A DNA stretch of 64,000 bases from Pristiophorus japonicus (Eukaryota). The notes beneath the pieces are model-generated. The model worked only from the letters and a program-made list of their open reading frames with translations, searched no databases and had not been told where the DNA came from. The translations under genes and the position numbers were made by a program. Every line of letters starts with the position of its first letter. Position 1 is the stretch's first letter. Below are positions 2,456 to 56,027 of the stretch, piece after piece. The stretch is from assembly GCF_044704955.1 (NCBI RefSeq), contig NC_091999.1:46500001-46564000 (forward strand). The letters are read 5' to 3'.

Positions 2456-2583
2456 ATTCCTCAGACCACATCTGGAATGAAGACTATGAGGACGAGAGCG
2501 TCAACATCTGGACAACAGCTTCCACATTCATCATCCTGTTCTTCCTGAGCATTTCCTACAGCGCTGCCGTCACGCTCGTGAAG
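2456..2583 (+). CDS. Immunoglobulin heavy-chain membrane exon TM1 (IgM/IgNAR-type, cartilaginous fish)
   Basis: Pyrimidine-rich acceptor ...cccgtag|, 128-nt phase-1 exon translating (D)SSDHIWNEDYEDESVNIWTTASTFIILFFLSISYSAAVTLVK, then AAG|GTGGGA donor; WTTASTFI.LF.LS..YS..VTL.K is the conserved IgH TM (CART) motif preceded by an acidic spacer. Confidence 0.93.
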
Positions 2584-2723
2584 GTGGGAAGATTCAATCC
2601 GCTCACACTTCCATCTGACTGAAGCCGTTTGACAAATCTCTGGATGTTTCATTAATATAAACCCTGAGATAAATGCCCCAGACCATTAAACCTCCGCTTC
2701 ATTCTTTTATCCCTCTTTTACAG

Positions 2724-2732
2724 CTCAAATGA
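2724..2732 (+). CDS. IgH membrane exon TM2 (L-K-stop)
   Basis: ttcttttatccctcttttacag|CTC AAA TGA, 140 nt after the TM1 donor; matches the two-codon TM2 architecture (normally V-K-stop). Confidence 0.85.
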   Translation, partial: LK

Positions 2733-2974
2733 TGGTCTGAATTTCGGCCGCCGTGGATGTTCCTCATCTGTTTATCATCCCTGTGTCACTAAAAATAAAA
2801 TATATCCTCTTGGTGATTCTCAGAGTAAACTACCTTCAGTTACTAGATCCGAATCAGTCGCTGAGAAATATATAACTGGGATTTCCGTCTTTCTGTTTGA
2901 AATGTGTTCGATAATTGTGGCTGTAATGTAACTGCATCTCAGAGTTTCACCGTGCCTTGTACATTTCATGTGTA

Positions 2975-2980
2975 AATAAA
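2975..2980 (+). terminator. Probable polyadenylation signal of the membrane IgH transcript (alternative AATAAA at 2794-2799)
   Basis: AATAAA followed by T/GT-rich sequence ~245 nt after the TM2 stop. Confidence 0.6.
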
Positions 2981-3465: not shown

Positions 3466-4036
3466 CCTGTGTTCGGTTCTCAATGTATTGCTCAGTTATA
3501 TTCACTTTGTGTTCACGTTTTTACACTTCCCTGTAAATTGTTTTCCGTGAAATTGTTAATAAATCTGGAATGACAAATTGAAGTAACTTGGATTTTCTCC
3601 ATGGCTCCTGTACACCGCTCCATTTTTCCTGTCACACTGTGTTTTATTTGCCTGACAGGTATATTTCACCCGTCCTGTCTGGGTTGTGATTGAACCCAAG
3701 TCCCGTTGGTGAAGGACCCACGGGACCACCCAGTGTCCCATCGGATTAAAGACACCTCTACCACTGCCTTGTTGTATCCGGTTCCAGAGGCGGAATTACG
3801 GCACAACGACCAGGTGCACCATGCAGTCTCCTCTAATATTATGGTCTGTCACAGTCACATGGCAGGTTCTATTAAAAAACAGCACTCCGTTCCGTCACAG
3901 ATTGTCACAGTTCAGTACACGGCAGAGTAAGTCTACCTTTCACTGTCCCATCAAACTCTCCCAGGGCAGGTACATTACGGGTTAGAAATCTGATACAAAC
4001 GCTCAAGGTAGCACAACACCGGAGAATGGCCCCCAA

Positions 4037-4758
4037 GAGGGTGAGCCTGTGCTGGCGCAATAGGGTGAGCCTGTGCTGGCCCAATAGAATGAGCCAGGCT
4101 TGCCCAATAGGGTGAGCCCGAGCTGGCCGAACAGGGTGAGCCCGGGATGGCCCAATAGGGTGAGCACATGCTGGCCCAATAGGGTGAACCCATGCTGGCC
4201 CAATAGAGTGAACCGGGTTCGTCCAATTGGGCGAGCCCGGGCTGGCTCAATATGTCGAGCCCAGGCTGGCTCAACAGGGTGAGCCCAGGCTGGCCCAATA
4301 GGGTGAACCCGTGCTGGCCCAATAGGGTGAGACGGGCCTGCCCAATAGTGTGAGCCCTGGCTGGCCCAATAGGGTGAGCCCGAGCTGGCCGAATAGGGTG
4401 AGCCCGGGCTGGCCCAATAGGTTGAGCACATGCTGGCCCAATAGGGTGAACCCATGCTGGCCCAATAGAGTGAACCGGGTTGGTCCAATTGGGCGAGCCC
4501 GGGCTGGCTCAATATGTCGAGCCCAGGCTGGCTCAACAGGATGAGCCCAGGCTGGCCCAATAGGGTGAACCCATGCTGGCCCAATAGGGTGAGACGGGCC
4601 TGCCCAATAGTGTGAGCCCTGGCTGGCCCAATAGGGTGAGCCAGTGCTGGCACAATAGGGTGAGCCCAGGCTGGCCCATTAGGGTGAACCCGTGCTGGCC
4701 CAATAGGGTGAGACGGGCCTGCCCAATAGTGTGAGCCCGGGCTGGCCCATTAGCGTGA
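4037..4758. repeat. 24-bp minisatellite (GCTGGCCCAATAGGGTGAGCCCGG), ~30 units with an internal ~260-bp higher-order duplication
   Basis: Direct reading; variant aatatgtcgagc recurs at 4249 and 4511. Confidence 0.95.
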
Positions 4759-4759
4759 G

Positions 4760-5190
4760 ACAACAATCAGCACAACAAGGCTCCCTGTCAGGGGCTACTG
4801 ACCTGGTCACAAACATGTGTCCAATCAAACTGACAGACATGCTGAAGCCCCGCCCATCCATTATCCCTGCCCAAAGGGCCGCGCATGCGCCCCGAGACCC
4901 ACCCTAACCAAGATGGCGACCACTGAGCCCTCTCCCCCAACCTGACCAAGATGGCGGCCGCTGTGCCCGCTCCCCCGGGCGCTCACTGACTGGGCCTGGA
5001 ACCGGCCTGTGCTTCGGTTCTTGGTGACGAGCCCGGGTGTGTGTGAAGATGATGGTGCGGATTTTTGTCTCTCGGGCCTGGGCCCGCACTCTTGCTGTGT
5101 GTCCCGCCCTGGGTTTATTAACGCAGGGAACTATTGGTTCTGCACTTTGTGACTGACAGGCGACAAGCCCCGCCCCATCCGGGCCCGAAT
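4760..5190 (+). promoter_or_regulatory. CpG-rich promoter-like module (CCAAT, GC box, NRF1, two YY1 motifs)
   Basis: CCAATC ~4821, CCCCGCCC ~4848, GCGCATGCGC 4881-4890, AAGATGGCG ~4910 and CAAGATGGCGGCC ~4947; high CpG density. Confidence 0.7.
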
Positions 5191-5221
5191 CATTCCATGC
5201 ATGTGGTGCAGTGAAATAAAA

Positions 5222-6050
5222 CTGGCACTTCGGCTGGGGGAGGCATACACTGGGACTGGGGTAAGGCACTTCGAATGGGGGAGGCATGCACTGGGATTGG
5301 GCTAAGGCACTTCGGCTGCGCGATGCATACACTGGGACTGGGGTAAGGCATTTCAGATGGGGAGGCATGCACTGGGACTGGGGTAAGGCACTTCGGCTGG
5401 GAGAGGCGGGCACTGGGACTGCGGTAAGGCACATCGGCTGGGGGAGGCATGCACTTGGACTGGGGTAAGACACTTCAGCTGGGGGGGCATACGCTCGATC
5501 TGTGGTAAGGCACTTCAGCTGGGGGAGGCGTGCCCTGGGACTAGGGTAAGGCACTTGGGCTCTGGGAGGCATGCATTGGGAAAGGGGAAGGCACTTTAGC
5601 TGGGGTGGGGGCATGCACTGGACTGAAGTAAGGCACTTTGGCGGCGGGATGCATATACTGGGACTGGGGTAGGGCACTTCGGCTGGGGGAGGCATGCACT
5701 GGGACTGGTGTAAGGCACTTCGGCTGGGGACAGAATGCACTGGGACTGTGGTAAGGCACTTCGGCTGGAGGAGACTTCCCCCGCGACTGGGGTAAGGCAC
5801 TTTGGCTGGGGGTGGCATATACTGAGGTAAGGCACTTCGCCTAGGGGAGGCATATACTGGGACTGGGGTAAGGCACTTCGGCTGGGGGAGGCGGGCACTG
5901 GGACTGCGGTAAGGCACTTCAGATGGGGGAGGCATGCACTGGGACTGGGGTAAGGCACTTCGGCTGGGGGAGGCCTGAACTGCGACTGGAGTAAGGCACT
6001 TCGGCTGGGGAGGGGTGCACTGGGATTGGGGCAAGGCACTTTGGCTGGCA
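5222..6050. repeat. ~41-bp G-rich minisatellite (GTAAGGCACTTCGGCTGGGGGAGGCATGCACTGGGACTGGG), ~20 units
   Basis: taagg period of 41 nt (5262, 5303, 5344 ...). Confidence 0.93.
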
Positions 6051-6219
6051 GTCGCTGTCTTCTGGGAGCTCTGCCTCTGTTGTTTCAGGAAATTAAAGTG
6101 GATCAAGTTACAATTTGCAAGTCAGTGATACGTTGGGATGGGTGTTTTCAGTTACACATTCGAGTGAAACCTCAGGCTTTGGCTCATCCTCCAAAGGAAC
6201 CAATCATGGAAAATGGTTG

Positions 6220-6446
6220 GAACATGGCGGCCATTTTTGCAGTACAAATAAGCGCGTCCTTTATTAACTCGCTGCCTCCCTCCACCCATCTCTGACCCCC
6301 TGTCTCGCCCACTGAGCATGCTCAGCTCACACTGCCTGGCTGATTGATGGCAGCTCCCGACCAATAGGGAAAGCAGTTGAGGAGCTGGAGGACTGGGTGA
6401 GCGGTTAGTCTTCCAACCAATCGGCGTGTGCAAGTGGTGCGGCCCC
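6220..6446 (-). promoter_or_regulatory. ZNF-family CCAAT promoter module, copy 1, abutting the ERV 5' LTR
   Basis: catgctcagctcacactgcc..gattga..CCAATAG..ggaggac..CCAATC aligns with 51240-51370 and 23450-23580; overlapping YY1 sites aacatggcggccatttt at 6221. Confidence 0.65.
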
Positions 6447-6977
6447 TGTATTGTATAGGGTTAATCACATAGGGTTAATTATGATATTTCGACATTTACA
6501 GTGTGTTTCTGCTTCATGCCGAGTGGAATGTTGTTGATGCAGAGAGAGAGAGAGAGAACTTGATGCACACACCATCTTGTTTATGGGACGGTCGGCGCCT
6601 CGAGGTCTCATGCTTTGTGGAAGAACAGCTGGGGCCTTACTGATTAGGAGTTGGCCATAAGCCACATGCACCCATGTTTGTTCAATAGTATAAAGGAATG
6701 GAACTGTCCAGTAGCTCTTTTAACTTCAACTTGGACCGTGATTCGCGAGCGGTGCCGGGACCCCCAAGGCTCCAGACCAGCCATCGTTGTGGAGTTCCCG
6801 ATGGGCCGAAAGCTGTGAGCTTTGTTGCATCTTATCATACTTCTCTTTTCTTTGTAAACTGTATTATGTTTCTTTTCCCTCAGTAAACGGTGTTTTATCT
6901 TTACTTCATTTGTCGTGTCTCTTATTTAACATCCATCCAGATCCCGAACCTAGGTCTATTATTATCGATCCAAAAAA
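6447..6977 (+). repeat. ERV 5' LTR
   Basis: Begins TGTATTG; TATAAA ~6688; AGTAAA polyA-like ~6882; aligns end to end with 12294-12829. Confidence 0.93.
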
Positions 6978-7006
6978 TGTTGGTGTCATGAACAGGATCT
7001 GGTAAA

Positions 7007-8590
7007 ATGTTTAAGAGAAAAGACAAGGAGCAGTCTCCTCCTGCGGGAGAGAAGTATAGAATACCAGGGTGGAGCACGAGGGATGAGTGTTTTGGCTCTC
7101 TTGCCAATGTGCTAGCCCAGTTTCCACCCCTGCAACATTGGGATATGCAGTTATTGGAACAGAGCAAAGATAGAACCGTACCCCACGTGGTACTGTCTCT
7201 CCTGGAGGAAGCGGGCTTCCCACAGGAGAAAAGTAATCCCCCACAAATGGGATGGATTTTGTTGACAGCATTAAGGACGATGTGTAAACAACTTAAGGAA
7301 AGTGAGGCAGAAAACCTAGAGTTAAAAACAGCTGTTAAGTTTTTCGAAAATCAAAACTCGACTCTCACTGAAGCGGTCCGCAATGCACAACAACAGGTGG
7401 ACAAGCTCAATGAACAATCAGAAACTTTAATATGCCATCTGGTGACAGTACAACATTATTAAAAAGCCAGATGACGGAAATTACAGATAGATCGGTCAAA
7501 GGTACGTGCATTGGTAGCTGGACCCACTTGGGATCCGGCTCATTGGGAAGGAGACATCTGGTAATCCTCTGACTCAGAATATGAATGGTCAGATGGAGAG
7601 GGGGGGGAACGGGAGGAAACTAAAAACCCTCCCCCATATGATCCGAGCACGAAAGCTAAACCCTTATGATAAATAAGGCGAAACAGCAAGATGGGGAACA
7701 GCCGGTAACCACTAGAGGGGTGCGTGACTTCACCACTAGTGAGTTACAAGAAATAGGATCTCGATTTCGCCAAAAACCCGGGAATCATTGTCAGAATGGC
7801 TAACCCGGATTTGGGATCAGGGAGCATCAGGCGTAATATTTAACCCTGAAGAATTAACAAAAATGAGGACTATGATTACGGACCACCATATCACAGCAAT
7901 GCTACGGAATGTCCAGGGCACAAGTTCGCTATGGGACATGGTTACTATAGGGGTCCAGAAAAAAAATCCCTCCGCCATTGATTGGGAAGGGAAGGTAAAA
8001 CCTTGGAGTACTGTGCTGGAGGGTGTGATACAATTGTGCAAGATGGCAACACAGGGAAGAATATATCACCAACAATATGGGGGGCCAGATCAGGAGCTCT
8101 TTACGGCAGGAATGCGGAGCAGGCTGATGAAGAGGGATGCGCTACGTGCATTATTGGGACCAGCCCAAGAGAAGCGGGTGGGGGACGCTTTCCTGTTGTT
8201 AGGACAGTTAGAGGATGTCGAAGATAGTGTGCGAGAGTCGAGAACGGCTAATGTAGAGGGGAATCGGGACCAGCGACAAGGTTCGACCTCTGGGAAAGAT
8301 ATAAGGTCAGGAAAGACAAAAAAAAAAATTGTGCGGAGGGACATGTACGCGGCTTTACTGAAAGCAGGGGTCCCCAAGGAAAAAATTTATGGAATCCCAA
8401 CAGGAGCAATGTATTCTATGTGGAAGCAACACTGCGTCCCGGGAACAGGGAAGGTTAAAAGGAGGGAGGTAAGGGCGACTAAGTCGGATAGCGATAATCT
8501 GTGGATGCGGAGAAACCACCTCCCACTAGTCTATACCCCAGCGTAGAAGAGCTGTGGAAGGCTAGTAATCCCCTCGACTGGGTTGTGACT
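7007..8590 (+). pseudogene. gag: ERV gag, interrupted by stops and frameshifts
   Basis: ORFs 7007-7462 and 7788-8546; PPPY late-domain-like motif near 7627; RDFTTSELQEIGSRFRQKPG/EWLTRIWDQG resemble ERV-L Gag. Confidence 0.8.
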
Positions 8591-8599
8591 GGGATCCGG

Positions 8600-11500
8600 G
8601 AGTACTCCCTGTTAGAACCACGTCAACCCAAGTTCCCGGGGATCTGAGGCCACACATTCCAATTATGATACATTGGCGGGACGGGGGGGAACATACAAAG
8701 AGATGTTGCTTTACTAGACACAGGGGCAGAAGTTACTATTATCCATGGAAATCCTAGGAAACACACAGGGACCTGTATGATGATTAATGGGTTCGTGGGG
8801 CAGAAACGCCCGCTGTCCAAACAACTTTCAGAATGGCGGTGGGAAATTGGTCTCTGCGCTGGGTAACGGTATTAATATCGGCAGTAAAGGAACATATTAT
8901 TGGGATGGACCTTTTAAAGGGAACCACACACAACACCTCGTTCAGGCAATTTTCATTCGGGATACGGGCGAACACTGAGATTGCAGGGGAAGCAAAGTGG
9001 GAACAAGTGGTAATACCACAGCCATTGCATATAGTTACAATGAAACAGTACCAAATACCTGGGGGACACAAAGAAATAGAGGAAACCATACAAGGGCTCT
9101 TGGAGGCGGGAATCATTAGACATGTGGTGTCCCCCTACAATAGCCCTGTTTGGCGTGTGCAGAAACCCAACAAAAGTTGGAGGATGACTGTGGATTACCG
9201 ACAACTGAACAAATGTGCCCCTCCCCTGGCAACCGCTGTCCCAGATGTAGTAACTATAACAGAGCGGCTGTCTCAAGAAGTTGCGGAGTGGTATGCGGTA
9301 ATCGACCTGGCCAATGCCTTTTTCTCCATTCCAATAGCGGAAGAATCCCAGGACCAGTTTGCATTCACTTGTGAAGGGAGGCAATACAAGTTTAAAAGCC
9401 TACCTCAAGGTTACCTACATAGCCGTACCCTATGCCACGGATTGGTGGCCCGGGACCTGGTTGTGCACGTTGGCTCCTAATGTCTCACTGGCACAATACA
9501 TCGATGATGTACTAATGAGAAATCCCACCGAGGCTGTGGTGTCAGAAGCCCTAGCTACTTTAGTCCAACACATGTGAGATATGGGCTGGGAGATAAATCC
9601 GAAGAAGGTGCAGGGCCCTAGCCAGATTGTCCAGTTTCTGGGGATCCAATGGTCTCGGTGTGAGCGCATCATACCCGAGCCTGTGAAGAATAAAATTCAA
9701 GAAATGGCCACCTCCACGAATAAAGCTGAGGCACAATGGTTCGTGGGACTATTGGGTTACTGGAGGAGACATATACCTCACCTCACGATGCTTTTAAAAC
9801 CGTTGTATGCCGTAACACGAAAAAAGGCCCACTTCGAGTGGGGAAAGGAACAACAGGTGGCTTTTGATGCAGCCAAAGAAGCCGTAGCTCAAGCTTTACC
9901 CCTAGCCCCACGAGTGCCTGGACAGCCTTTTGAGTTACAGGTATCCGTTACCAATGATACTGCAGTATGAAGTTTGTGGCAGGTTCAACATGGCACTCGT
10001 ATACCGTTAGGGTTCTGGTCTAGAAAATTGACAGATGCTGCTGCTCGTTACACTCCATTTGAGAAAAAATTATTAGCGTGTTATTGGGCCATTACAAAAA
10101 CAGAAGGACAGACAGGGGACGACAAAGTCAATTTAAGACCAGACCTACCCATTTTATCGTGGGTTCTCTCAGAAAATGGGACACACAAGATCGGGCGAGC
10201 GCAGCAAAGCTCCATAGTGCGCTGGAAATGGTATATCGCAGACAGAGCAAGTAAAGGGAAAGAAGTAATCACCCGACTACATGAGCATGTGGCTGGATAC
10301 CCACAAACAGCTGAGAGTGAACTTACGCAGTCGTCTGTCAGTTTAAGCAAAGAGTCACCGATCCCCTGGGGCGTGCCTTTTGAACAGTTAACACCCGAAG
10401 AACGTAGCCATGCCTGGTTCACAGATGCCTCAGCGGTCTGGCGAAATGGCCTTCGGCGATGGCGAGCCACTGCCTTCAATACAAAAACCCAGACAATTGT
10501 GCATGATGAGGGCGTGGGAGGCTCCAGCCAGCAAGCCGAACTAGCAGCTGTAGTCCTTGCGTTAGAAGAGAAACGGCAACACGTACACATATATACTGAC
10601 TCAGGGGCAGTAGCCAATGGCATGGCGGGCTGAATGCGAAACTGGCATGAACATAACTGGCAAATAACGGGGAAAGACTTGTAGGGAAAGTACCTATGGG
10701 AACAAATATGGTCCAAAGCCCAGGAGATGAAAATAACTGTATATCATGTGGACACTCACATGAAAAACACTTCAAAGACCTCTGAATATAATAACACCGT
10801 TGATAATATAGCCCGGGTACGGGCTATCAAACAGGCGGAAGAGGAAGAATATGGCACAGGCAAGTGGGCCCACTACAAATCTAGACATTTGGGCATTCAG
10901 GGTACGATACAGTGGGCACGAAATGGGGGGGTTACATTTGACTACGGACGGTGTTAAATAGATCATAAATACCTGTGAAATGTGTCAAAAGGTGAAGCAT
11001 TTCCCCCTACAACGACAACCCGGTGCCATATTAAGAGAGGGACTCAACCAGCAGAAACATGGCAAGTTGATTATGTAGGACCTTTACCATTGCAACAACG
11101 GTTCCAATATTTGCTCACTGTTGTTGATACCTATTCTACATTTTTGATCGCTTAACCAGTGACTAAAGCGAATCAACAAAGTATGATTAAAGGACTGGAG
11201 AATTTAATCACATACTACGGTGAGCCAGCAGAAGTACAATCCGATAATGGGTCGCACTTCACAGGTCAAACAGTGCAACAGTGGGCGGTAGACAACGAGA
11301 TCTATTGGATGTTTCACATACCTTACTATCCGCAAGCTGCAGGGTTAATAGAACGCATGAATGGATTACTTAAGCAACAGATTAAAATATTAACTACCAC
11401 TAACACATTGCAAGGATGGTTAAAGGTCTTCCCACAAGCAGTGCGCAATCTGAATCACCGACCATTGTGGGGGGGAACTCCATAAGCCACATGTTAGGCA

Positions 11501-11706
11501 AAGTTAGTGTCCCTACTATTGAAAAAGGAAATCAGACTCAGGACACAGTTTGTGAAGGAGGAAAAGTGTGGGTGCAGTACCTCCAGAAACGCTTACAAGC
11601 AGGGGAAATCTTAGCGAAAGGAGAAGGAAACACTTATTGGGTGCTCCTGACCGGTCAATACATTCCTCTCTCTGTTGACAAGGGTAAATTGACTAAACGG
11701 GGCTGA
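8600..11706 (+). pseudogene. pol: ERV pro-pol (protease, RT, RNase H, integrase), multiply disrupted; no dUTPase seen
   Basis: LLDTGA at ~8711; ORF pieces 8833-9480, 9581-9970, 9974-10633, 10727-10957, 11159-11485; RNase H WFTDASA/SSQQAEL/HIYTDS; HHCC and DDE motifs. Confidence 0.93.
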
Positions 11707-11734
11707 ATTAATATAATTATGCTTCCTCCCACAG

Positions 11735-12269
11735 GAATTCTGCCCAAAATGGCGACCTACCAACTCGTGCTGGCCAGCATCTGTGTCTCGTTATCTGTGA
11801 CTGTGCTACTTCCATCCTCAAACCCAGCATCAAATGGCCATAAAGGGTGACGGTTAGGCTAACACTGATCGTACGCAAGACAATTACTAACCTTCCTCCC
11901 ATTGTAGACCTAACTCGTTAAGCTCAATTTCTAAAAGATAATCAAAAGGTTACTGACGAATTGAGCAAACGAGGGCGTACTCTTCATACTCTGCAAGTTG
12001 CTATGAGTTACAGTGAAGGCACCTTGGTCAGAGTTGCGACAACGATCACTGACCTTACAGTACACCATTGGTGGGACATCTTTTAAGGATGGTCCCCAAA
12101 AACATCCGCCACTTTGAAGCTGTTAATACATCCTATTGTTGTTTTACTCGTCCCGTTATTACTGATATTACTGCTTGTATGTATTCTTTGGTGTAGATTG
12201 CGGGCGTTGCTTGCGCATACACAACATGTAACTGATGCATTACGCCTTCAACTCGATTATAATACTTAG
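11735..12269 (+). pseudogene. env: ERV env remnant (internally deleted; TM anchor retained)
   Basis: Acceptor cttcctcccacag| at 11734, ATG 11749 with a hydrophobic leader; downstream frame reads ...VHHWWDIF*GWSPKTSATLKLLIHPIVVLLVPLLLILLLVCILWCRLR...*. Confidence 0.75.
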
Positions 12270-12293
12270 AATGTCTAAATTTCAAGGGTGGAT

Positions 12294-12829
12294 TGTATTG
12301 TATAGGGTTAATCACATAGGGTTAATTATGATATTCCGACACTTATAGTGTATATTCTGCTTCATGCCTCGTGGAATGTTGTTGATGCAGAGAGAGAGAG
12401 AGAGAGACCTTGATGCACACACCATCTTATTTATGGGACGATAAGCGCCTCGATGCTTCATGCTTTGTGGAAGAACAGCTGGGGCCTTACAGATTAGGAG
12501 TTGGCCATAAGCCACATGCACCCATGGTTTGTTCAATAGTATAAAGGAACGGAACTGTTCAGTAGCTCTTTGAATTTCACCTTGGACCGTGATTCGCGAG
12601 CGGTGCCGGGAGCCCCAAGGCTCCTGACCAGCTGTCGTTGCGGAGTTCCCGACGGGCCGAAGGCTGTGAGCTTTGTTGCATCTTATCATACTTCTCTTTT
12701 CTTCGTAAACTGTATGATGTTTCCTTTCTCTCAGTAAATGGTGTTTTATCTTTACTTCATTTGTCTTGTCTCTTATTTAACATTCATCCAGATCCCGAAC
12801 CTGGATCTATTATTATCAATCCAAACACA
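12294..12829 (+). repeat. ERV 3' LTR
   Basis: TGTATTG...ccaaaca(ca); roughly 90-93% identical to the 5' LTR by eye. Confidence 0.93.
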
Positions 12830-15339
12830 TGCTAGCACAAGTCGTTTACACAGGTTATACAATACAAGCAGCTTGTTGGAGCATAAAATGTTTCTGGCTT
12901 TCTCAAAAGCAATTACTTGTTTTATCCCCCCCATACCCAGTTCTCACTTTTACGCAATAACACATGTAGGGGCTCTAAGAGGGTGCTTAACCCCGATAGG
13001 AAGTTACCAAAATAGTTGAGGAGTCCCAGGAACGACCGCAGCTCCATGACGTTCTGTGGCCTGGGCGCGTTCCTGATAGCCTCTGTCTTGGCGTCTGTGG
13101 GCCGAATGCCGTCCGCCGCGATCTTTCTCCCCAAAAACTCCACTTCTGTTGCCATGAAGACGCATTTCGACCTCTTCAGCTGCAGCCCTACGCGATCCAG
13201 TCGCTGGAGGACCTCCTCCAGGTTTTGTAGGTGCTCGATGGTGTCCCGACCCGTGAACAATATGTCGTCCTGAAAAACCACCGTGCGTGGTACCGACTTG
13301 AGTAGGCTCTCCATGTTTCACTGGTGGATCGCTGCAGCCGATCGAATTCCAAAAGGACATCTGTTGTAGATGAACAGTCCCTTGTGCGTGTTAATGCAGG
13401 TGAGGCACTTCGAAGACTCCTCAAGCTCCTGCGTCATGTATGCCAAAGTCAGGTCGAGCTTGGTGAACGTCTTGCCTCCTGTCTGCGTCACAAATAGGTC
13501 GTCTGCCTTAGGTAGTGAGTATTGGTCCTGTAGCGAGAAATAATTAATAGTTCCTTTCTAATCGCTGCAAATCCTGACCGTGCTATCACTTTTGAGTACT
13601 GGAAAAATCGGGCTGGCCCACTCACTGAATTCCACTGGAGAGATGATGCCCTCACGTTGCAGCCTGTCCAGCCCGATTTCCACTCTCTCCCTCATCATGT
13701 GAGGTACCGCTCGGCCTTGTGGTGAATGGGCCGTGCCTCTCGGACCAAGTGGATAAACACCTTCGCCCCGGAAAAGTTTCCAATGCCTGGCTCAAAAAGG
13801 GAAAGACATTTTTAAGAACCTGGGTACACGAGGCCTGATCGACATGTGATAGCGCTCGGATGTCACCCAGTTCCAGCGGATTTTTCCCAGCCAGCTCCTT
13901 CCAAGCAGTGTGGGGCCATCGCCCAGGACAATCCAGAGTGGCAGTTCGTGCACCATGCCCTCGTTGGTGACCTTGACTATGGCACTGCCCAGGACAGTGA
14001 TGAGCTCTTTGGTGTACGTTCTCAGTTTCGTGTGCATGGGGCTCAGGGTTGGTATGAGTGCCATATTGCACCACAGTCTCTCAAACATCTTTTTACTCAT
14101 GATGGATTGGCTAGCACCAGTGTCCAGTTCCATGGCTATGGGTAAGCCATTGAATTTTACATTTAACAATATAGGTGGACATTTTGTCGAAAATGTGTGC
14201 AGCCCGTGTACTTCAGCATCTGCCTCCTCTCTCTGAGGCTTGAAATTGCTTTGTTCCACCATGGACCGATATTCCTCTGCCACGTGGTGGTCAGCAGGTT
14301 TAGCTGAACTTGCAGATCGTCTGCAAGCTCGTTGGAGGTGCCCCATTGTTCCACAGCTGTTGCAAACATACCCTTTGAACCGGAATGAATAGGCAGAATG
14401 GAAGCCTCCACAATGCCAACAAGGTGTTAATTGCCTTGCGGACTCTGAGTCATCTTGGTCACCTGAGGCTTGCTGGCAGTTGCAGACTCATGGTTTCTGC
14501 CCTGTACATTTCTGCTCGCAAACCCAGTTCCAGTTATGTATGAACATTGCTAGCACTTGTGTGCTGAGAGATTTGTTTGTTGTTATCATTGGTGGACATA
14601 AACGCCTGTGCTATTTCAATGGCATTACTAATGGTCGGTGTCTCTACAGTAAAAAGTTTTCATAGGATGGTCTCTTGGCCAATGGCCAGTAAAAAAAATT
14701 CTCTGAGCATCTGCTCCAGGTAGCCATCAAACTCACATTGTCCTGCAAGTCGCCTTAGCTCGGCGATGTAGCTCGCCACTTTCTGACCTTCAGATGGCTG
14801 GCACGTGTAGAACCGATACCTTGTCATCAGCACAATCTACCTCGGGTTAAGATGCTCCAGAACCAGTGTACACAGCTCCTCATATGACTTGTCTGTGGTT
14901 TCACTGGAGCCAGAAGATCCTTCATGAGGCTGTAGGTCGGTGCCCCGCAGACCGTGAGGAGGACGTTTCTCCTTTTTGCAGTGCTTCCTTCTCCGTCCAG
15001 CTCGTTGGCTACAAAGTACTGGTCTAGCCGTTCGCCATAGGCTTCCCAGTCCCCACTCTCCGAGCTCTGCTCCAGGATGCCTACAGTTTGCTGCATCTTT
15101 GTGTTGGATTCGTATTCTCGTCGCCAGTTATTGTGTTCCAAACACAGATGGGACTGCACACAGGGAGGTGAAAGTAATAGTGACCTCAGTCTTTATTAAG
15201 ACACTCCAGAGTGAGGAACAGACCGTAGGGGCCGGCTTATATACAGTGCTCCCAAGGCATGTTGGGATCCATTGGGATTTCAGGGGATGTGCTCCCTGGT
15301 GGCGAAGCATGGGAGTTCATGCTTTATAGATACACAACA
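12830..15339 (-). mobile_element. Ty3/Gypsy LTR retrotransposon, 5' half only (LTR, PBS, gag, protease, RT, start of RNase H); decayed
   Basis: ~210-bp LTR 15339-15128 (TGTTGTG..., TATA, AATAAA) then PBS TGGCGACGAG (tRNA-Ser-like); Gag DWEAYGERLDQYFVANEL; protease MELDTGAS; RT FQDDI, LRSFLGLLNYF; ends at KRLVLA. Confidence 0.9.
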
Positions 15340-20384: not shown

Positions 20385-21335
20385 TCACTTGTGAACTCGC
20401 AGGTGTCTGAGCAGGTTGTATGGGGCAGTGAATCCCTTCCCACAGACGGAGCAGGTGAACGGCCTCTCCCCAGTGTGAACTCGCTGGTGTGTCAGCAGGT
20501 TGTATGGGGCAGTGAATTGCTTCCCACAGATGGAGCAGGTGAACGGCCTCTCCCCAGTGTGAGCGCGTTGGAGTTTCCTCAAATCATTTCTGCTTTTAAA
20601 ACTCTTCTCACAGTCAGAACATTTAAACGGTTTCTTATTGGTGTGAACAAGTTGGTGTGCCAGCAGGTTGGATGAACAAGTGAATCCCTTCCCACACACG
20701 GAGCACATGAATGGCCACTCCCCAGTGTGAGGTGGCTGGTGTGTCAGTTCGCTGGATGAATCACTGAATCCCTTCCCACACATGGAGCAGGTGAACGGCC
20801 TCTCCTCGGTATGTACTCGCTGGTGTCTCAGCAGGTGGGATGGCCAATTGAATCCTTTCCCATACTCTGACCAGGTGAACGGCCTCTCCCCAGTGTGATT
20901 GCGCTTGTGAATTTCCAGCTCAGACGGGTAACTGAATCCCTTCCCACAGTCTCCACATTCCCACGGTTACTCCATGGTGCTGGTATCCTTGTGTCTCTCC
21001 AGATTGGTTGATCAGTTGATGCCTCGCCAACACACAACACGTTTACAGATTCTCTGCGCTGTGAATGGTGCGCTGTTTTTTCAGGCTATGTAACTGGTTA
21101 AAGCTCTTTCCAAAGGCAGTGCACGGGAACACTTTCACTCGTCTGTGTGTGTCTCGGTGCTTTTGAAGTCACACTGATGTTTGAAATATTTGCCCACAGG
21201 CAGAACAGACAAACATTTCTCCTTCCACATTCAAAGGCCGATGATATTCATGTTGCGGTGGATCAAGTGACTCTGTGAGATCTTGGTGATGTTTGGTTCC
21301 AGTTTCTCATCTGCAAATCCTTCCCTTCTAATACC
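20385..21335 (-). pseudogene. C2H2 zinc-finger exon A (7 fingers, some degenerate); family ATG at 20975 followed by GAG TAA
   Basis: Acceptor aaactcctttttcag| at 21336; TGERPF linkers; ORF 20385-20783 from an internal ATG. Confidence 0.88.
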
Positions 21336-23039: not shown

Positions 23040-23660
23040 TGTCACAGGTCTCACCAGCAGCTGCGCTGCCTGATGGGTGATTGACAGCCGACAGTCTGCG
23101 CATGTGCACCGATAACCATGTCCGGCACAGCACCCCATCTCGGTCGATATCGGTAATAACCGCGCATGCCCAGGGGACACCAACCGCCGCCTCCCCCCCA
23201 CACTCGGAGCTGCGCCTGCTCACTCGGATCCTGTGGTGTGGAGTCAGCACAGCACCTTCCGGGGAAAGGCGTTTGTGTCTGTTAAGAGCCATGAGCGGTG
23301 ATGCAAAGTAAGTTTTCTCCGCTCCGATTGTGTAGGGAATTGCACGGGGGGGATAGGGAGAGAATAGAGGGAGATCCAAACCCGAGAGTCCGCCCATCCG
23401 GGTCCCCGAGAACAGTTTCCACCAGTTTGGCGGAGCGCGCTTGAGGGACACGTGACCCGGGCCTGATTGACAGGAGCTTCCGACCAATGCGGAGCGAGTG
23501 GGGCGGGGCTGGAGAAGCGAGCTGGCGGAGGGTCCTCCAACCAATCGGGGAGCCCGAGAGGCGGGATTTGTGCCGCTGATTGTCTGAGCCGCAGGGCACG
23601 ACCTTGTGCAGTCCCTTGTTCAGGGCCTGGGGCCAGGGGAGGCGATGGGCCTTTATTGTG
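23040..23660. promoter_or_regulatory. CpG island, candidate bidirectional promoter, includes promoter-module copy 2
   Basis: NRF1-like ctgcgcatgtgca (~23096) and cgcgcatgc (23161), CACGTG, CCAAT boxes, GGGGCGGGGC; + strand donor AAA|GTAAGT ~23308, - strand donor G|GTGAGA ~23054. Confidence 0.65.
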
Positions 23661-30351: not shown

Positions 30352-30870
30352 GGTATTCAAAGGATTTGGAGACGGAAAACTCAAACCAAACATCACACCA
30401 AGATCTGACGGAGTCACTTGATTCCTCAGGACCTGAATATCATCGGCCTTTTAATATAGAAGGAGAAATATTTGTCTGTTCTGCCTGTGGGAAAAATTTC
30501 AAATATCAGTGTGACTGGAGAAGCACTGAGACACACACACCCAAGTGAGTGTTCCAGTGCACTGACTGTGGAAAGAGCTTTAACCAGTTACACAGCCTGA
30601 AAAAACATTTTACCATTCACAGCGGGGAGAACCGTACACGTGGTGTGTGTGGACCAGGCTTCAACTGATCATCCAACCTGGAGAGACACAAGGATACCTG
30701 CACCATGGAGAAACCGTGGAAATGTGGGGACTGTAGGAGGGGATTTAGTTCCCCATCTAACCTGGATATTCATCAGCGCAGTCACACCAGGGGAAGGGAT
30801 TCACTTGGTCATCCCACCTGCTGACACACCAGCGATTTCACACTGGGGAGAGGCTTTCTGCTGCTGAACT
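30352..30870 (+). pseudogene. C2H2 zinc-finger exon B, truncated/frameshifted after the first finger
   Basis: Acceptor aaactccttttacag| at 30351; ATG 30705 [27 protein letters not shown] then a deletion and frameshift. Confidence 0.88.
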
Positions 30871-32467
30871 TAGCGTGTGCCCCACAGCATCTCGCTCACC
30901 TTCGATGTGTGAATGGAGCATCATGGCTGCAAAACTGGTTTTAATTTTAATTTGAATCCACTCAGGAAATGTATTTAACAAAAGATGAACAAGTAAACCG
31001 ATTACATCAATTAATTAATTAATTGGCAAAGCTTTAGAGTCACCAAGATGAACAAGTAAACACATCACAGCCCAATCGTCCAGCTCTGTATTCACAGGAG
31101 AATGTCTGTTTTCTAACTGATCACGTGAACAGAATATAGGAAGACCATAAGTTTAAGAACCTGTAGAATCTGTTGTAAATATCTTTCAAATCCTGACTGG
31201 TACAATCTCTCGGTTTCCTTTCAATTGAAATGAATGGAAGATGAGAGGGGTTTAAGAGGAGGGGTAAGTGAGGGTGGAGAATAAGGGTGAAACGAGTTGG
31301 GATGAAGATGGTTGGAGAGCAGAGGAGCAAGAGGAGTTGGGATGAGGGTTTTGGTGAATAGTAGTCTCTCAATTTCACTGAATAAAATATAATTATTGTC
31401 ACCAATATGAGTTAAGTCAAAGCTTTCTGAACTTAGGCGTGAAAGGGTTAATTGGCACAGACCCAAAAACTCAACAAATTGACTTGACGGATAGTAATTA
31501 ATCAACATTTTGTTCAGTGGAACTGGGGTCCGGAGATCTGTGGCCAATTAGTTTTACTTGGCCAGGCTATCAATCCAGGATGGAGAATCTCTGGGAGATG
31601 GACGACTAATCTCCTACCAGTAGTTGAGCGATGGGTTTGCTAAGCATGGCTAACCTAACAGAACGTGCCAGGGACAATGAACATGGGAAGCTGCTCCCTA
31701 CCACTCACTTGCCATCATTCCTCGCGAGTCCACAAGGTGACTCATACCGAAAGCGGTCGATTGGGTCCAGAGTCAAATTGACGAGGGCAAGTCCCAATTT
31801 GACAAAGGGAAGCTTATATTGGCTTATGCAACCCACCTCTGCGCACAGACTTGAGAAATTAACAGGTGAGAGAGGAGAAGCATAAGGAACAGGCGAGACA
31901 GAGAGGGAAAAAGATCTAAGCTGCAAGTTAACCCAGCCGAGAACTCAGCAAAGGAAGGAAAAAACAGAATGAGGGAATAAGTTGCTCAGATGACAATTTA
32001 AAAGGCGAAAAAAGGAAACTTGAAGTTGAAACCAACACTGAATCTGTCAGTTTCTGTGCCGAGAAAAATAAAGCACAAGATTACTGAGTGAAAGGAACCT
32101 GAAAGGATGCTGGAATTTCAGTTTGTGTGAATTGTATTAGAGTGGAAGTTTTCCTGACCATGAATGTTTAAGAATTTACAGTATTCCTTTTGTCTGAAAG
32201 TCTGTCTTTGAAAAAAGCGTCTGTTATGTTTGTTTTAGCTTCACCCACTTTTCTCTGCATGGAGCTAAAAGCCGTTTAACCCTTTGTTGTCTTGGATGTT
32301 GGGAGTTTTAAGCAAGTGTGGATATGTTCAGTATGTTCATTTCAATTCAGATTGTGGAACTAGTAGCAGGGGATCTTTATGATTTACATTTTGAAGTTAA
32401 AGACGCTGTTGGTATATTTTGACTGGGGCAAGCTGTGCAACACTGAAAGTCAGGCGAGTTTGTTTTA

Positions 32468-35400
32468 CATAGAAACATAGAAACATAGAAACATAGAAAA
32501 TAGGTGCAGGAGCAGGCCATTCAGCCCTTCTAGCCTGCACCGCCATTCAATGAGTTCATGGCTGAACATGAAACTTCAGTACCCCCTTCCTGCTTTCTCG
32601 CCATAACCCTTGATCCCCCGAGTAGTAAGGACTTCATCTAACTCCCTTTTGAATATATTTAGTGAATTGGCCTCAACTACTTTCTGTGGTAGAGAATTCC
32701 ACAGGTTCACCACTCTCTGGGTGAAGAAGTTTCTCCTCATCTCGGTCCTAAATGGCTTACCCCTTATCCTCAGACTGTGACCCCTGGTTCTGGACTTCCC
32801 CAACATTGGGAACATTCTTTCTGCATCTAACCTGTCTAAACCCGTCAGAATTTTAAACGTTTCTATGAGGTCCCCTCTCATTCTTCTGAACTACAGTGAA
32901 TACAAGCCCAATTGATCCAATCTTTCTTGATAGGTCAGTCCCGCCATCCCGGGAATCAGTCTGGTGAACCTTCGCTGCACTCCCTCAATAGCAAGAATGT
33001 CCTTCCTCAAGTTAGGAGACCAAAACTGTACACAATACTCCAGGTGTGGCCTCACCAAGGCCCTGTACAACTGTAGCAACACCTCCCTGCCCCTGTATTC
33101 AAATCCCCTCGCTATGAAGGCCAACATGCCATTTGCTTTCTTAACCGCCTGCTGTACCTGCATGCCAACCTTCAATGACTGATGTACCATGACACCCAGG
33201 TCTCGTTGCACCTTCCCTTTTCCTAATCTGTCACCATTCAAATAATAGTCTGTCTCTCTGTTTTTACCACCAAAGTGGATAACCTCACATTTATCCACAT
33301 TATACTTCATCTGCCATGCATTTGCCCACTCACCTAACCTATCCAAGTCACTCTGCAGCCTAATAGCATCCTCCTCGCAGCTCACACTGCCACCCAACTT
33401 AGTATCATCCGCAAATTTGGAGATACTGCATTTAATCCCCTCGTCTAAATCATTAATGTACAATGTAAACAGCTGGGGCCCCAGCACAGAACCTTGCGGC
33501 ACTCCACTAGTCACTGCCTGCCATTCTGAAAAGTACCCGTTTACTCCTACTCTTTGCTTCCTGTCTGACAACCAGTTCTCAATCCACGTCAGCACACTAC
33601 CCCCAATCCCATGTGCTTTAACTTTGCACATTAATCTCTTGTGTGGGACCTTGTCGAAAGCCTTCTGAAAGTCCAAATATACCACATCAACTGGTTCTCC
33701 TTTGTCCACTTTACTGGAAACATCCTCAAAAAATTCCAGAAGATTTGTCAAGCATGATTTCCCTTTCACAAATCCATGCTGACTTGGACCTATCATGTCA
33801 CCATTTTCCAGATGCACTGCTATGACATCCTTAATAATTGATTCCATCATTTTACCCACTACTGAGGTCAGGCTGACCGGTCTATAATTCCCTGTTTTCT
33901 CTCTCCCTCCTTTTTTAAAAAGTGGGGTTACATTGGCTACCCTCCACTCCATAGGAACTGATCCAGAGTCAATGGAATGTTGGAAAATGACTGTCAATGC
34001 ATCCGCTATTTCCAAGGCCACCTCCTTAAGTACTCTAGGATGCAGGCCATCAGGCCCTGGGGATTTATCTGCCTTCAATCCCATCAATTTCCCCAACACA
34101 ATTTCCCGACTAATAAAGATTTCCCTCAGTTCCTCTTCCTTACTAGACCCTCTGACCCCTTTTATATCCGGAAGGTTGTTTGTATCCTCCTTAGTGAATA
34201 CCGAACCAAAGTACTTGTTCAATTGATCCGCCATTTCTTTGTTCCCCGTTATGACTTCCCCTGATTCTGACTGCAGGGGACCTACGTTTGTCTTCACCAA
34301 CCTTTTTCTCTTTACATACCTATAGAAACTTTTGCAATCCGCCTTAATGTTCCCTGCAAGCTTCTTCTCGTACTCCATTTTCCCTGTCCTAATCAAACCC
34401 TTTGTCCTCCTCTGCTGAGTTCTAAATTTCTCCCAGTCCCCAGGTTCGCTGCTATTTCTGGCCAATTTGTATGCCACTTCCTTGCCTTTAATACTATCCC
34501 TGATTTCCCTAGATAGCCACGGTTGAGCCACCTTCCCCTTTTTATTTTTACGCCAGACAGGAATGTACAATTGTTGTACTTCATCCATGCGGTCTCTAAA
34601 TGTCTGCCATTGCCCATCCACAGTCAACCCCCTAAGTATCATTCGCCAATCTATCCTAGCCAATTCTCGCCTCATACCTTCAAAGTTACCCTTCTTTAAG
34701 TTCTGGACCATGGTCTCTGAATTTACTGTTTCATTCTCCATCCTAATGCAGAATTCCACCATATTATGGTCACTCTTCCCCAAGGGGCCTCGCACAATGA
34801 GATTGCTAATTAATCCTCTCTCATTACACAACACCCAGTCTAAGATGGCCTCCCCCCTAGTTGGTTCCTCAACATATTGGTCTAGAAAACCATCCCTTAT
34901 GCACTCCAGGAAATCCTCCTCCACCGTATTGCTTCCAGTTTGGCTAGCCCAATCTATGTGCATATTAAAGTCACCCATTATAACTGCTACACCTTTATTG
35001 CATGCACCCCTAATTTCCAGTTTGATGCCCTCCCCAACATCCCTATTACTGTTTGGAGGTCTGTACACAACTCCTACTAACGTTTTTTGCCCTTTGGTGT
35101 TCTGCAGCTCTACCCATATAGATTCCACATCATCCAAGCTAATGTCTTTCCTAACTATTGCATTAATCTCCTCTTTAACCAGCAATGCTACCCCACCTCC
35201 TTTTCCTTTTATTCTATCCTTCCTGAATGTTGAATACCCCTGAATGTTGAGTTCCCAGCCCTGATCATCCTGGAGCCACGTCTCCGTAATCCCAATCACA
35301 TCATATTTGTTAACATCTATTTGCACAATTAATTCATCCACCTTATTGCGGATACTCCTTGCATTAAGACACAAAGCCTTCAGGCTTGTTTTATTAACAC

Positions 35401-36292
35401 CCTTTGTCCTTTTAGAATTTTGCTGTACAGTGGCCCTTTTTGTTCTTTGCCTTGGGTTTCTCTGCCCTACACTTTTCCTCCTCTCCTTTCTGTCTTTTGC
35501 TTTTGGCTCCTTTTTGTTTCCCTCTGTCTCCCTGCATTGGTTCCCATCCCCCTGCCATATTAGTTTAAATCCTCACCAACAGCACTAGCAAACACTCCCC
35601 CGAGGACATTGGTTCCAGTCCTGCCCAGGTGCAGACCGTCCGGTTTGTACTGGTCCCACCTCCCCCAGAACCGGTCCCAATGCCCCAGGAATTTGAATCC
35701 CTCCCTGCTGCACCACTGCTCAAGCCACGTATTCATCTGCGCTATCCTGCGATTCCTACTCTGACTATCAGGTGGCACTGGTAGCAATCCCGAGATTACT
35801 ACTTTTGAGGTCCTACTTTTTAATTTAGCTCCTAGCTCCTTAAATTCGTTTCGTAGGACCTCATCCCTTTTTTTGCCTATGTCGTTGGTACCAATGTGCA
35901 CCACGACAACTGGCTGTTCTCCCTCCCATTTCAGAATGTCCTGCACCCGCTCCGAGACATCCTTGACCCTTGCACCAGGGAGGCAACATACCATCCTGGA
36001 GTCTCGGTTGCGGCCGCAGAAACGCCTATCTATTCCCCTCACAATTGAATCCCCTATCACTATCGCTCTCCCACTCTTTTTCTTGCCCTCCTGTGCAGCA
36101 GAGCCAGCCACGGTGCCATGAACTTGGCTGCTGCTGCCCTCCCCTGATGAGTCATTCCCCTCAACAGTACCCAAAGCGGTGTATCTGTTTTGCAGGGGGA
36201 TGACCGCAGGGGACCCCTGCACTACCTTCCTTGCTCTACTCTTCCTGCTGGTCTTCCATTCCCTATCTGGCTGTGAACCCTTTCCCTGCGGT
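32468..36292 (-). mobile_element. Young CR1 LINE, 5'-truncated within ORF1; ORF2 has one nonsense codon near the C-terminus
   Basis: ORF1 35560-36222, ORF2 35374-32891 (827 aa, GAG>TAG) continuing 32881-32576; (ACATAGAA)n tail at 32468. Confidence 0.97.
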
Positions 36293-37299
36293 AAAGATAA
36301 ACTTCAGCCTTGAAGTTACGGTTGCCATGTGCCTGATACTTGGTTTGAAATTTCTCAAAGCACTTTGTTTTTTCACATTTAAGCAAATTGAATCAATGTT
36401 TCTCCACTCATATTCAGTATTTTTAGTCATTTGGAAAAACACCTGAAGGTAACAATGATGTAATTTACTGTGTTCTGTAAGCATGTGCTACTTTGTTTTA
36501 TTTTATCTGTTCTGTATTGTTTAGTTAATAAAATATTGTTCCGAATTAAATAGGAGCTATTGAAATGAACTAAGCTATGTTTTATTCAAGGTTAATAATG
36601 ATAGCTTTTCGAATGATTTCAGCTGTTTTGACGGATTTTTAATTCCTAAGGAAGTTTTGAATTTCCAAACTTCAAAAAAAGAACCAAGTGTTGATTTAAA
36701 ACAAACTTCTGTTTGTTCACTTGAGTCGTAACGAATTAAATCTTCTGTTTCTAATCAATTTACAAGTGGAGTATAGTCACAGATGGAGCACGTGTAACCA
36801 GGCATGGGTATCTCCACGCTAACGAACAAAGGAAAAAGCTTACATTTATAGACTATTTTCTTATCAAACTGGAGCCGGCTTTGCCAAATATGGTAGTCTC
36901 TGGCTACTGCATCTTACAGAGACACAAGTTTACATCAGCAACACATTTAGAAGCATTGTGGCCTGCTATGGTGATCATAAACCACTAGTTCTGGACTTTT
37001 CTTATCCAAACAATATTTCTAATCCATTCTATTATGAATATCGAAGCCTGGTTGATCGCAAAACACCAGCTGTTGCTAAGTGAAATCTGTCACTCTCTCC
37101 CTAATAATACGAACCACATTTTCCCTCTATTGAATGAATGAAACATAAACCCCTTTCAGAAGCTGAATTAACCAGGGTCCACATGTCAACCTGTCCCACA
37201 GGTTTTTTTATGGGTTACATTACCTGTTGACAAAGTGTTTTATATCCTTCTTTGTCTTTACTAATCCCAGTTTCGTCTCAGCGTCCTTCCCTTCCCTTA

Positions 37300-42291: not shown

Positions 42292-43073
42292 TCACTTGTG
42301 AACTCGCTGGTGTGCCAGCAGGTGGAATGACCGAGTGAATCGCTTCCCACACTCCGAGCAGGTGAACTGCCTCTCACCAGTGTGAACCCGCTGGTGTGTC
42401 AGCAGGCAGGATGACACACTGAATCCCTTCCCACACTCAGAGCAGATAAATGGCCTCTCCCCAGTGTGAACTCGCTGGTGTATCAGCAGGTTGGATGACC
42501 GAGTGAATCCCTTCCCACACACGGGGCAGGTGAATGGCCTCTTCCCAGGGTGAACTCGCTGGTGTATCAGCAGGTCGGATGACCGAGTGAATCCCTTCCC
42601 ACACACGGGGCAGGTGAACGGCCTCTCCCCAGTGTGACTGTGTTGATGAATTTGCAGTGCAGATGGGTAGCTAAATCCCTTCCCACAGTCCCCACATTTC
42701 CACGGTTTCTCCGTGGTGCGGGTGTGGTTCTGTCTCTCCAGGTTGGATGATCAGTTGAAGCCTCCTCCACACACAACACGTTTACAGTTTTCCCCGCTGT
42801 GAATGGTACGATGGTGTTTCAGGCTGTGTAACTGGTTAAAGCTCTTTCCACAATCAGTGCACTAAAACACTCTCAATCGGGTGTTTGTGTCTCTGCTTTT
42901 TCAGTCACACTGATGTTTGTAATCTTTCCCCACAGGCAAAACAAAAAAACATTTCTCCTTCCACATTCAAAGGCCGATGATATTCAAGTCCTGATGAATT
43001 GAGTGACTCTATCAGATCTTGACGTGACGTTTAGTTTGAGTTTCCCTCCTTCAAATCCTCCCCTTCTAACATC
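42292..43073 (-). pseudogene. C2H2 zinc-finger exon C: five intact fingers, but the family ATG is ACG (42714)
   Basis: Acceptor cactttttgcag| at 43074; GCACC-ACG-GAG AAA CCG TGG; frame open to TGA at 42292. Confidence 0.85.
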
Positions 43074-48688: not shown

Positions 48689-48861
48689 ATTCTTTACAGA
48701 CGCTCCCTGCTCAGTCACCATTGAACCTTCATTTACAGACGCTCCCTGGTCCATTACTATTTCTCGTTGATTTACAGACACTCCCTGAGAGTTTGACGCA
48801 GACACAGCGCATGCACTGACCGCTCCTTCGGGCTGGAGCGGACCCAGGACCCGGCAGGCAG

Positions 48862-51138: not shown

Positions 51139-51139
51139 T

Positions 51140-51375
51140 GGGCCCGGGGGCTGCACTCGGTGTTGTTGTCCCCAGCGTTTCTTTAACCCGCTCCCTGGAT
51201 CTCGCTCACCTCCTGCGTCAGCGTCTGTCACCGCCGCCTGCACATGCTCAGCTCACACTGCCCGGGTGATTGACGGCAGTTCCCCACCAATAGGAAGAGT
51301 GAGGCGGGGCTGGAGGACCGGATGGGCGGTTGGTCCTCCAACTAATTGGAGTGTGTGAGGGGCGGGGCTTCCGGC
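51140..51375 (-). promoter_or_regulatory. Promoter-module copy 3 plus short first exon (donor GAG|GTGAGC ~51209), probably for ZNF-C
   Basis: CCAAT and GGGGCGGGGC boxes, CTTCCGG ETS site, homology to 6300-6446. Confidence 0.65.
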
Positions 51376-53325: not shown

Positions 53326-53429
53326 TGGCACTGGCATTTAGCGCTGCCAAACTCCCTTATTGTCTATTTTCTAGCCTTTGTTTCCTCTGCCTTCCAAACA
53401 GTATACCTACTGTCCCTGCTCTCTAGCCA

Positions 53430-56025: not shown

Positions 56026-56027
56026 AG

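Follow-up and report, generated by a model that had tools for sequence, protein, structure and literature searches.

Judged by their sequence, the two short exons at positions 2456-2583 and 2724-2732 of the window (by which we mean the whole 64-kb stretch of DNA analysed) are the membrane-anchor exons of a complete IgM mini-cluster. We consider it highly probable that they form the membrane end of an intact, partly pre-joined cluster which is one of 25 sharing a single fusion to zinc-finger-array DNA, likely multiplied as blocks of more than 100 kb in which the zinc-finger DNA travelled along passively. The IgM gene is of a known kind and mostly ordinary, being in itself textbook shark immunology; its zinc-finger genomic setting was not found in print.

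The membrane exons and the 3' end of the gene

The 3' end of the gene comprises the following features of the window:

1-2259, + strand: 3' part of a LINE, presumably of the CR1 type, in the CH4-TM1 intron (Pfam endonuclease and RVT_1)
2456-2583, + strand: TM1 exon of IgM with acidic spacer, transmembrane helix and first cytoplasmic Lys (frame, splice sites, homology)
2724-2732, + strand: TM2 exon of IgM, Leu-Lys-stop (AG acceptor behind a pyrimidine tract, two codons, stop)
2794-2799, + strand: first AATAAA, membrane-form 3' UTR
2975-2980, + strand: second AATAAA, membrane-form 3' UTR

TM1 has a length of 128 nt, is entered in phase 1 and left in phase 0, and contains an open frame of 43 residues. 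It is bordered by an acceptor AG at 2454-2455 and a donor GT at 2584, and an intron of 140 nt (2584-2723) separates it from TM2. Its transmembrane helix is the one conserved in antigen receptors, and in translation the tail of the membrane form reads Lys-Leu-Lys. An earlier reading of this DNA from its letters alone (the sequence-only reading) had described an intact TM1, a two-codon TM2 and good splice sites, all of which is borne out by the AG/GT borders and the open frames. It had also described one AATAAA; the signal is present, but there are two, at 2794 and 2975.

The heavy-chain similarity expected for the TM1 peptide was found. All seven PDB matches at E<=0.0015 (9 were listed) are membrane immunoglobulin heavy chains, the best of them membrane IgM mu (E 6.9e-7), and the peptide shares 31 of 42 residues (74%, E 3e-15) with the Ig heavy C region of the horn-shark membrane form. 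The 5.9-Gb assembly searched contains 109 matches to the TM exon at E<=2.3e-4 (112 were listed, the 3 weakest were dropped), 79 of them on C23, the contig of the window. The TM2 acceptor and codons are preserved in 28 of the 30 best genomic copies. Pfam gave no model match for the TM peptide, and Rfam none across the 64-kb window at gathering thresholds.

The LINE in front of TM1 begins about 850 bases 5' of the window, has an 8-bp tandem tail at 2225-2259 and fills the CH4-TM1 intron in the window copy and in the one sister measured. CH4 and TM are 6.27 kb apart in these two; the distance is 3.0-3.2 kb in seven further clusters of C23 and 5.4 kb in another.

The complete gene and its identity as IgM

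An upstream scan covered the 100 kb 5' of the window on the + strand of C23. The parts from leader to secretory tail were found 3.4-15.9 kb 5' of the window (C23 coordinates):

46,484,096-46,484,141, + strand: leader
46,484,269-46,484,586, + strand: V-D1
46,484,966-46,485,013, + strand: J
46,491,425-46,491,724, + strand: CH1
46,492,674-46,492,991, + strand: CH2
46,494,951-46,495,259, + strand: CH3
46,496,179-46,496,508, + strand: CH4
46,496,509-46,496,570, + strand: secretory tail

With V-D1, J, CH1-CH4, secretory tail and recombination signals all found upstream, the proposal of the sequence-only reading that this is the 3' end of an IgH cluster holds: it belongs to a complete IgM cluster and is no orphan TM module. 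All ten exons and segments are in frame, the intron borders are AG/GT and the phases agree; the spliced constant region comprises 464 aa (membrane) or 439 aa (secreted) and has no internal stops. Pfam detected one V-set domain and four C1-set domains, CH1 included, the latter 3' of V and J. CH4 carries a secretory tail with penultimate Cys as well as an internal donor for the membrane form. Together with its tail it aligns with the human IgM tailpiece and exhibits 86% identity to Triakis IgM, 80-81% to nurse-shark Ig heavy/mu and 82% to the horn-shark membrane form. The gene was overlooked solely because its exons are short.

The two exons have next to no probability of being an orphan TM module or of terminating an IgW or IgNAR gene. 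Upstream there are a V, a J, four constant exons, CH1 among them, and a tail of the IgM type, and the top named matches of the constant region are IgM, no IgW- or IgNAR-named record being among the matches for direct scoring.

In its layout the gene is like the elasmobranch IgM mini-cluster known from nurse and horn shark (VH-D1-D2-JH-Cmu1-4-Sec-TM), with one V, one J, four C1-set exons, a tail on CH4, and TM1 plus a two-codon TM2. As in these clusters, segments are a few hundred bases apart, and CH1 lies 6.4 kb behind J; for shark IgM, passages of PMC2435157 give segment gaps of about 400 bp and a J-CH1 distance of 6.3-6.8 kb. Unlike the nurse- and horn-shark mini-clusters, the window family has no D2 (30 of 30 loci), a pre-joined V-D1 and a Lys-Leu-Lys tail, and 72 of its contig's TM exons are interleaved with zinc-finger DNA over 53 Mb.

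Rearrangement state of the V, D and J segments

V continues directly into a D1-like stretch, which is followed by a 22-bp signal. J stands 380 bp 3' of V-D1 and is preceded by a 12-bp signal, and D2 is absent. Since J lies directly behind the 12-bp signal of D2, one 22/12 RAG step would remain, and from its signals the window's clade can be read as VD1-[D2]J with this single step left. Two-D clusters with the canonical V-D1-D2-J layout exist in the genome (L092, L093). The window gene does not have the two free D and the 23-bp signal before J of such a canonical cluster. It corresponds to a partial germline join of the VD-DJ type, as signals and spacer are gone at the joins and unjoined relatives are present in the same genome.

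Over its full length, the spacer in front of J aligns with the D1-D2 spacer of L092 and L093 (scores 172-189); against the D2-J spacer it reaches scores of 26-36, and shuffles reach 39. This correspondence with the D1-D2 spacer suggests an ancestral germline loss of D2 in the family, and on the same ground the family was rejected as a primitive one-D cluster. A search for the J-signal pattern gave 42 matches, 34 of them of the window family's type, and in all 30 loci read (all on C23) the J Trp codon follows 14 or 16 nt after the signal, without D2.

The V-D1 join is common to nine copies. V and D1 are free in the sister clades, compared to which the join shows a 4-nt overlap and no added bases. 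On the D2-J side, 0-2 nt are retained where the 13-nt D2 would be. A trimmed coding joint would explain this, but equally well would a RAG hybrid joint or the loss of the DNA between the two identical heptamers. Among 50 V loci we saw 2 fully unjoined clusters and roughly a dozen junction sequences that differ from one another; the sample is biased, the loci having been picked by likeness to the window V. Two clades of the V/J tree, VD1 with 9 rows and V-DJ with 7, are supported at 100/99 or better, and several distinct V-D-J junctions each mark a duplicated clade.

The germline states VD-J, VD-DJ and VDJ are known in shark IgH from passages of PMC5192425, and in those of PMC2193156 germline joins are ascribed to RAG in germ cells, in several independent events. 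Compared to the partly joined shark IgH genes known, the present ones are distinguished by the 0-2 nt kept of D2 on the DJ side and by the dozen or so junctions among the 50 V loci. As a germline-joined IgM the gene is like the nurse-shark subclass IgM1gj, but IgM1gj is fully joined and without CH2 in the description given in parts of PMC5192425, whereas the window gene has CH2 and one open step.

Following established shark immunoglobulin biology, RAG in a B cell would join the 22-bp signal that follows VD1 to the 12-bp signal preceding J and remove about 380 bp, and VD1-J joining would leave a single junction to diversify. The transcript would either end at the secretory tail or be spliced from the donor within CH4 over the 5.9-kb intron to TM1 and TM2. 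The membrane form would then be the B-cell-receptor chain with its Lys-Leu-Lys tail.

Junction with zinc-finger-array DNA and co-duplication

Downstream of the gene, the window contains a junction and several elements of zinc-finger arrays:

4028-4036, no strand: junction of IgM 3' flank and zinc-finger-array DNA (homology on the IgM side stops at 3986-4036, that on the array side begins at 4032)
4032-4759, no strand: 24-bp CCAAT-containing tandem repeat, 30.6 copies
4750-5230, + strand: GC-rich promoter-like module 1, with copies in zinc-finger arrays of C9 and C23 that contain no Ig (motif and homology)
5224-6048, no strand: 41-bp tandem repeat, 20.3 copies
6050-6445, no strand: promoter-like module 2 (role suggested by position)
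20388-21243, - strand: C2H2 zinc-finger exon carried with the IgM cluster, with a stop two codons past the usual Met
30354-30901, + strand: broken C2H2 zinc-finger exon, frameshift after the first finger
42295-42888, - strand: C2H2 zinc-finger exon, five fingers, usual start Met absent

For the following counts of places only the best candidates were scored, secondary pieces being dropped. The junction point is spanned by 25 of 40 scored places, all of them at most 2 kb from a TM exon and 21 on C23. For module 1, too, 40 places were scored; the best 25 are each located 2.0-2.6 kb downstream of a TM exon and point the same way, where chance would give 0.3% per random site; the other 15 lie far from any TM match (C23, small contigs, C9). 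Of the 40 places scored for the zinc-finger exon at 20.4-21.2 kb, 23 follow a TM exon at 17-19 kb (chance 1.7%), and the exon at 42 kb is found at a like distance from a TM exon in 6 of 40, the window included. Between the window and its sister at C23:59.2 Mb, collinearity extends from -66.6 to +74.6 kb at 95.7-98.8% identity, giving a block length of at least 141 kb as measured on this one pair. The shared junction argues for a single origin of the 25 clusters; the V/J tree leaves the junction-bearing clusters as an open fork, unresolved as one clade.

Ten clusters of other lineages share the 3' UTR, but none of the ten has the module or the zinc-finger exon within 20 kb downstream. At the IgM copies on C19, zinc-finger-array DNA was found in none of 10 stretches of 10 kb. 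A general unit of Ig and zinc-finger genes was rejected on account of these two results. The interleaving and co-duplication of Ig clusters with zinc-finger units, put forward in the sequence-only reading, was thereby found in one lineage, with 25 clusters carrying one junction and a block of at least 141 kb; as a fixed adjacency it does not extend to the ten other clusters over the 20 kb covered.

Among 13 samples of 10 kb from C23, two contain a C2H2 exon and six any array marker, compared to none of 10 controls on other large contigs (a small sample). The zinc-finger pattern has 3214 matches in the genome, and positions were taken from 100 listed, all on C1-C5; the lone C3 copy of the IgM cluster stands in a 2.3-Mb stretch with 40 of these 100. 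This copy (L091, C3:330.68-330.70 Mb), situated near the end of C3 inside a zinc-finger array, has D1 and D2 apparently germline-joined (V-D1D2-J), a 9-finger open frame 32 kb downstream and a related LINE that occupies another position within the TM intron. Two clusters on C27 have a C2H2 exon between them, 56 kb past the TM of the first and about 10 kb ahead of the V of the second.

The sequence-only reading had placed zinc-finger-type promoter modules within about 2 kb of the membrane exons. A GC-rich module does begin about 2 kb downstream, and its role as zinc-finger promoter is putative, resting on position and homology. Module 1 contains words which we take to be YY1-like (4948) and NRF1-like (4881). 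Homologues of module 2 at 23463-23548 and 51232-51368 stand 5' of minus-strand zinc-finger exons. In all four Ig-free copies of module 1 read, a C2H2 exon lies 7-16 kb away on the opposite strand, so that in these arrays the module is faced, rather than followed, by nearby intact finger exons. By motif and position, both modules are candidate promoters. Eight copies of module 1 were seen at C9:201-228 Mb, on a contig without TM match, and two module copies 16 Mb apart on C9 show the same finger arrangement over 40 kb.

The fusion might have a regulatory role. In that case the GC/CCAAT modules, 1.8-3.5 kb past the poly(A) sites of IgM, would hold the cluster in an open state, either in B cells or, for access by RAG, in germ cells, and the lineage would thereby stay intact and be amplified. 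We judge this decidedly improbable. Both modules are about 80-84% identical even in copies on another contig, and on C3 and C27, too, zinc-finger exons occur 10-56 kb from IgM copies; but the ten other clusters mentioned above, the two-D family among them, showed neither module nor zinc-finger exon over the 20 kb downstream, and the ten C19 stretches contained no such DNA. The junction is present in 8 of the 9 free-D1 clusters seen in the family, yet germline joins are at least as common without the junction, so that a promotion of germline joining by the module is unsupported. Finally, stops or frameshifts in V, CH4 or TM are found in many of the clusters that lack the junction, but better preservation is also expected of a lineage that is simply younger. 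A wider and rather improbable proposal is that zinc-finger arrays act as amplifier and opener of shark IgM. Fusion to CpG promoter modules would give open chromatin and entry into the duplication cycle of the arrays; one germline D2 loss would have made most IgM loci one-D (V23-12D22-12J), and the copies would record about a dozen later germ-cell joins.

According to the passenger explanation, which we prefer, the germline loss of D2 in the family founder would have come first. It would have been followed by fusion to the array through a rearrangement at tandem-repeat-rich DNA, and then by separate V-D1 or D1-J germline joins in sub-lineages which were afterwards multiplied. Segmental duplication would have spread the fused cluster.

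Selection on the IgM gene and decay of the zinc-finger exon

The carried zinc-finger exon is broken or truncated in all 24 copies, none having a Met-initiated frame with more than 4 fingers, and in 9 of 9 members of the window's clade a stop follows right after the usual start. A short zinc-finger product may be made from an inner Met, as far as the frame indicates. The corresponding exon at Ig-free module copies encodes 8-12 fingers (4 of 4). By this decay the carried exon looks like a passenger, not a partner. CH1-4 and tail are intact in 12 of the 15 junction-bearing clusters translated. Pooled pN/pS values, obtained from 6 representatives in 15 non-independent pairs, are 0.32 for the constant exons, 0.84 for the zinc-finger exon and 0.87 for V. 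Selection preserved the antibody constant region, not the finger.

These values also bear on the rather unlikely case that the cluster is in frame but silent, its last rearrangement failing and the cluster persisting solely through recent copying. The J-side nonamer is weak and the LINE ends about 200 bp before the TM1 acceptor, as would suit such a cluster; both heptamers of the window gene, however, match those of the two-D clusters. Copying was indeed very recent, with 9 copies about 99% identical over 3.1 kb, but the constant exons are intact in all five members of the window's clade translated, and CH1-4 of the window gene has a dN/dS of 0.31-0.44 compared to the other sub-lineages. A precedent for silence is the horn shark, for which passages of PMC2193156 report joined H-chain expression as undetected. 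We regard the window gene as an intact cluster with one joining step left.

Number and arrangement of copies

On C23, 72 TM exons lie within 13.8-66.7 Mb (53 Mb), on both strands and with a median spacing of 0.5 Mb. Shark IgM clusters are 120 to more than 200 kb apart in passages of PMC5192425. Up to 100-200 IgM clusters per species are given in parts of PMC12227049 and PMC5192425, and the copy number found here is within this published range. In having many IgM clusters over megabases of one chromosome, C23 is like the elasmobranch antigen-receptor complex (IgM, IgW, IgNAR and TCR alpha/delta) as described in parts of PMC12227049.

In the V/J tree many copies form near-identical pairs, and 4 of the 25 junction copies are on small contigs, so the copy number may be inflated by haplotypes. 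It is very improbable that most of the repetition is an assembly artefact, with both haplotypes or duplicated reads placed on one contig. The identical pairs, the small-contig copies and the mirrored pairs of TM positions, e.g. around 27.7 and 49.2 Mb, would fit such an artefact, but the main sub-lineages differ at 9-15% of synonymous sites and in their V-D-J joins and private LINE insertions. With these differences haplotypes could at most about halve the count, and we hold to a genuine multiplication of the fused lineage.

The mirrored opposite-strand pairs of TM exons occupy C23 at about 25.8-29.7 and 47.9-50.5 Mb, which suggests megabase inverted duplications or haplotype duplication. CH4 exons without nearby TM match were also seen on C23 (e.g. 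60.17, 40.67, 48.84 and 26.62-26.90 Mb), some in 140-kb tandem steps; these are truncated or secretory-only clusters and stand outside the count of 109. Dozens of V-like exons, about 30-34% identical to the window VH, occur on C1414, C2932, C3833, C2571, C3961, C9:4.4-6.1 Mb and others. One of them lies inside a 3056-aa open frame, and they form a separate, much amplified Ig-domain family. Furthermore, a 742-bp contig of an Aeromonas veronii record (P0011) contains a shark-like IgM fragment of 85% identity, likely a host contamination of the record.

Zinc-finger DNA and shark immune genes in the literature

Shark and ray immune genes (MHC-Ia-like) are embedded among multiple zinc-finger gene copies according to passages of PMC10751288. 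Unlike the present case, these passages describe no shared junction or co-duplication unit. An account of Ig-zinc-finger co-duplication was not found in the literature searched with zinc-finger terms, which includes few subscription journals, nor in passages from the main texts of PMC8692893, PMC7677710, PMC2435157, PMC8455134 and PMC10751288. In PMC12227049, 'zinc' and 'ZNF' are absent from the main text, and 'zinc finger' and 'znf' from both supplements.

The mapped junction and the block of at least 141 kb indicate how one IgM lineage multiplied inside zinc-finger arrays, and the germline V-D-J joins in its copies form a series to which places on a tree can be assigned. They offer a system for asking how the numbers of shark Ig clusters expand, whether RAG or ordinary deletion is the source of germline joins, and what use is made of partly joined clusters.

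Other elements of the window

An LTR retroelement with broken gag-pol-like frames (RVT_1, RNase H) adjoins module 2 at 6447-12827. Between its two LTRs, 37 of 528 aligned bases are different, and a target-site duplication was not evident; the element recurs in both other junction-bearing sub-lineages read and thus predates their split. A second broken LTR-retrotransposon-like stretch, with protease- and RT-like frames recognised by eye, lies at 12900-15200 on the - strand. Long simple tandem arrays at 48800-51200 and 53400-56050 contain spurious open frames of up to 963 aa. Young LINEs, 95-97% like the LINE in the TM intron, are located at 32470-36293 (- strand) and 61022-64000 (+ strand); the one at 32.5-36.3 kb has an 893-aa open frame and is absent from the sister at 59.3 Mb.
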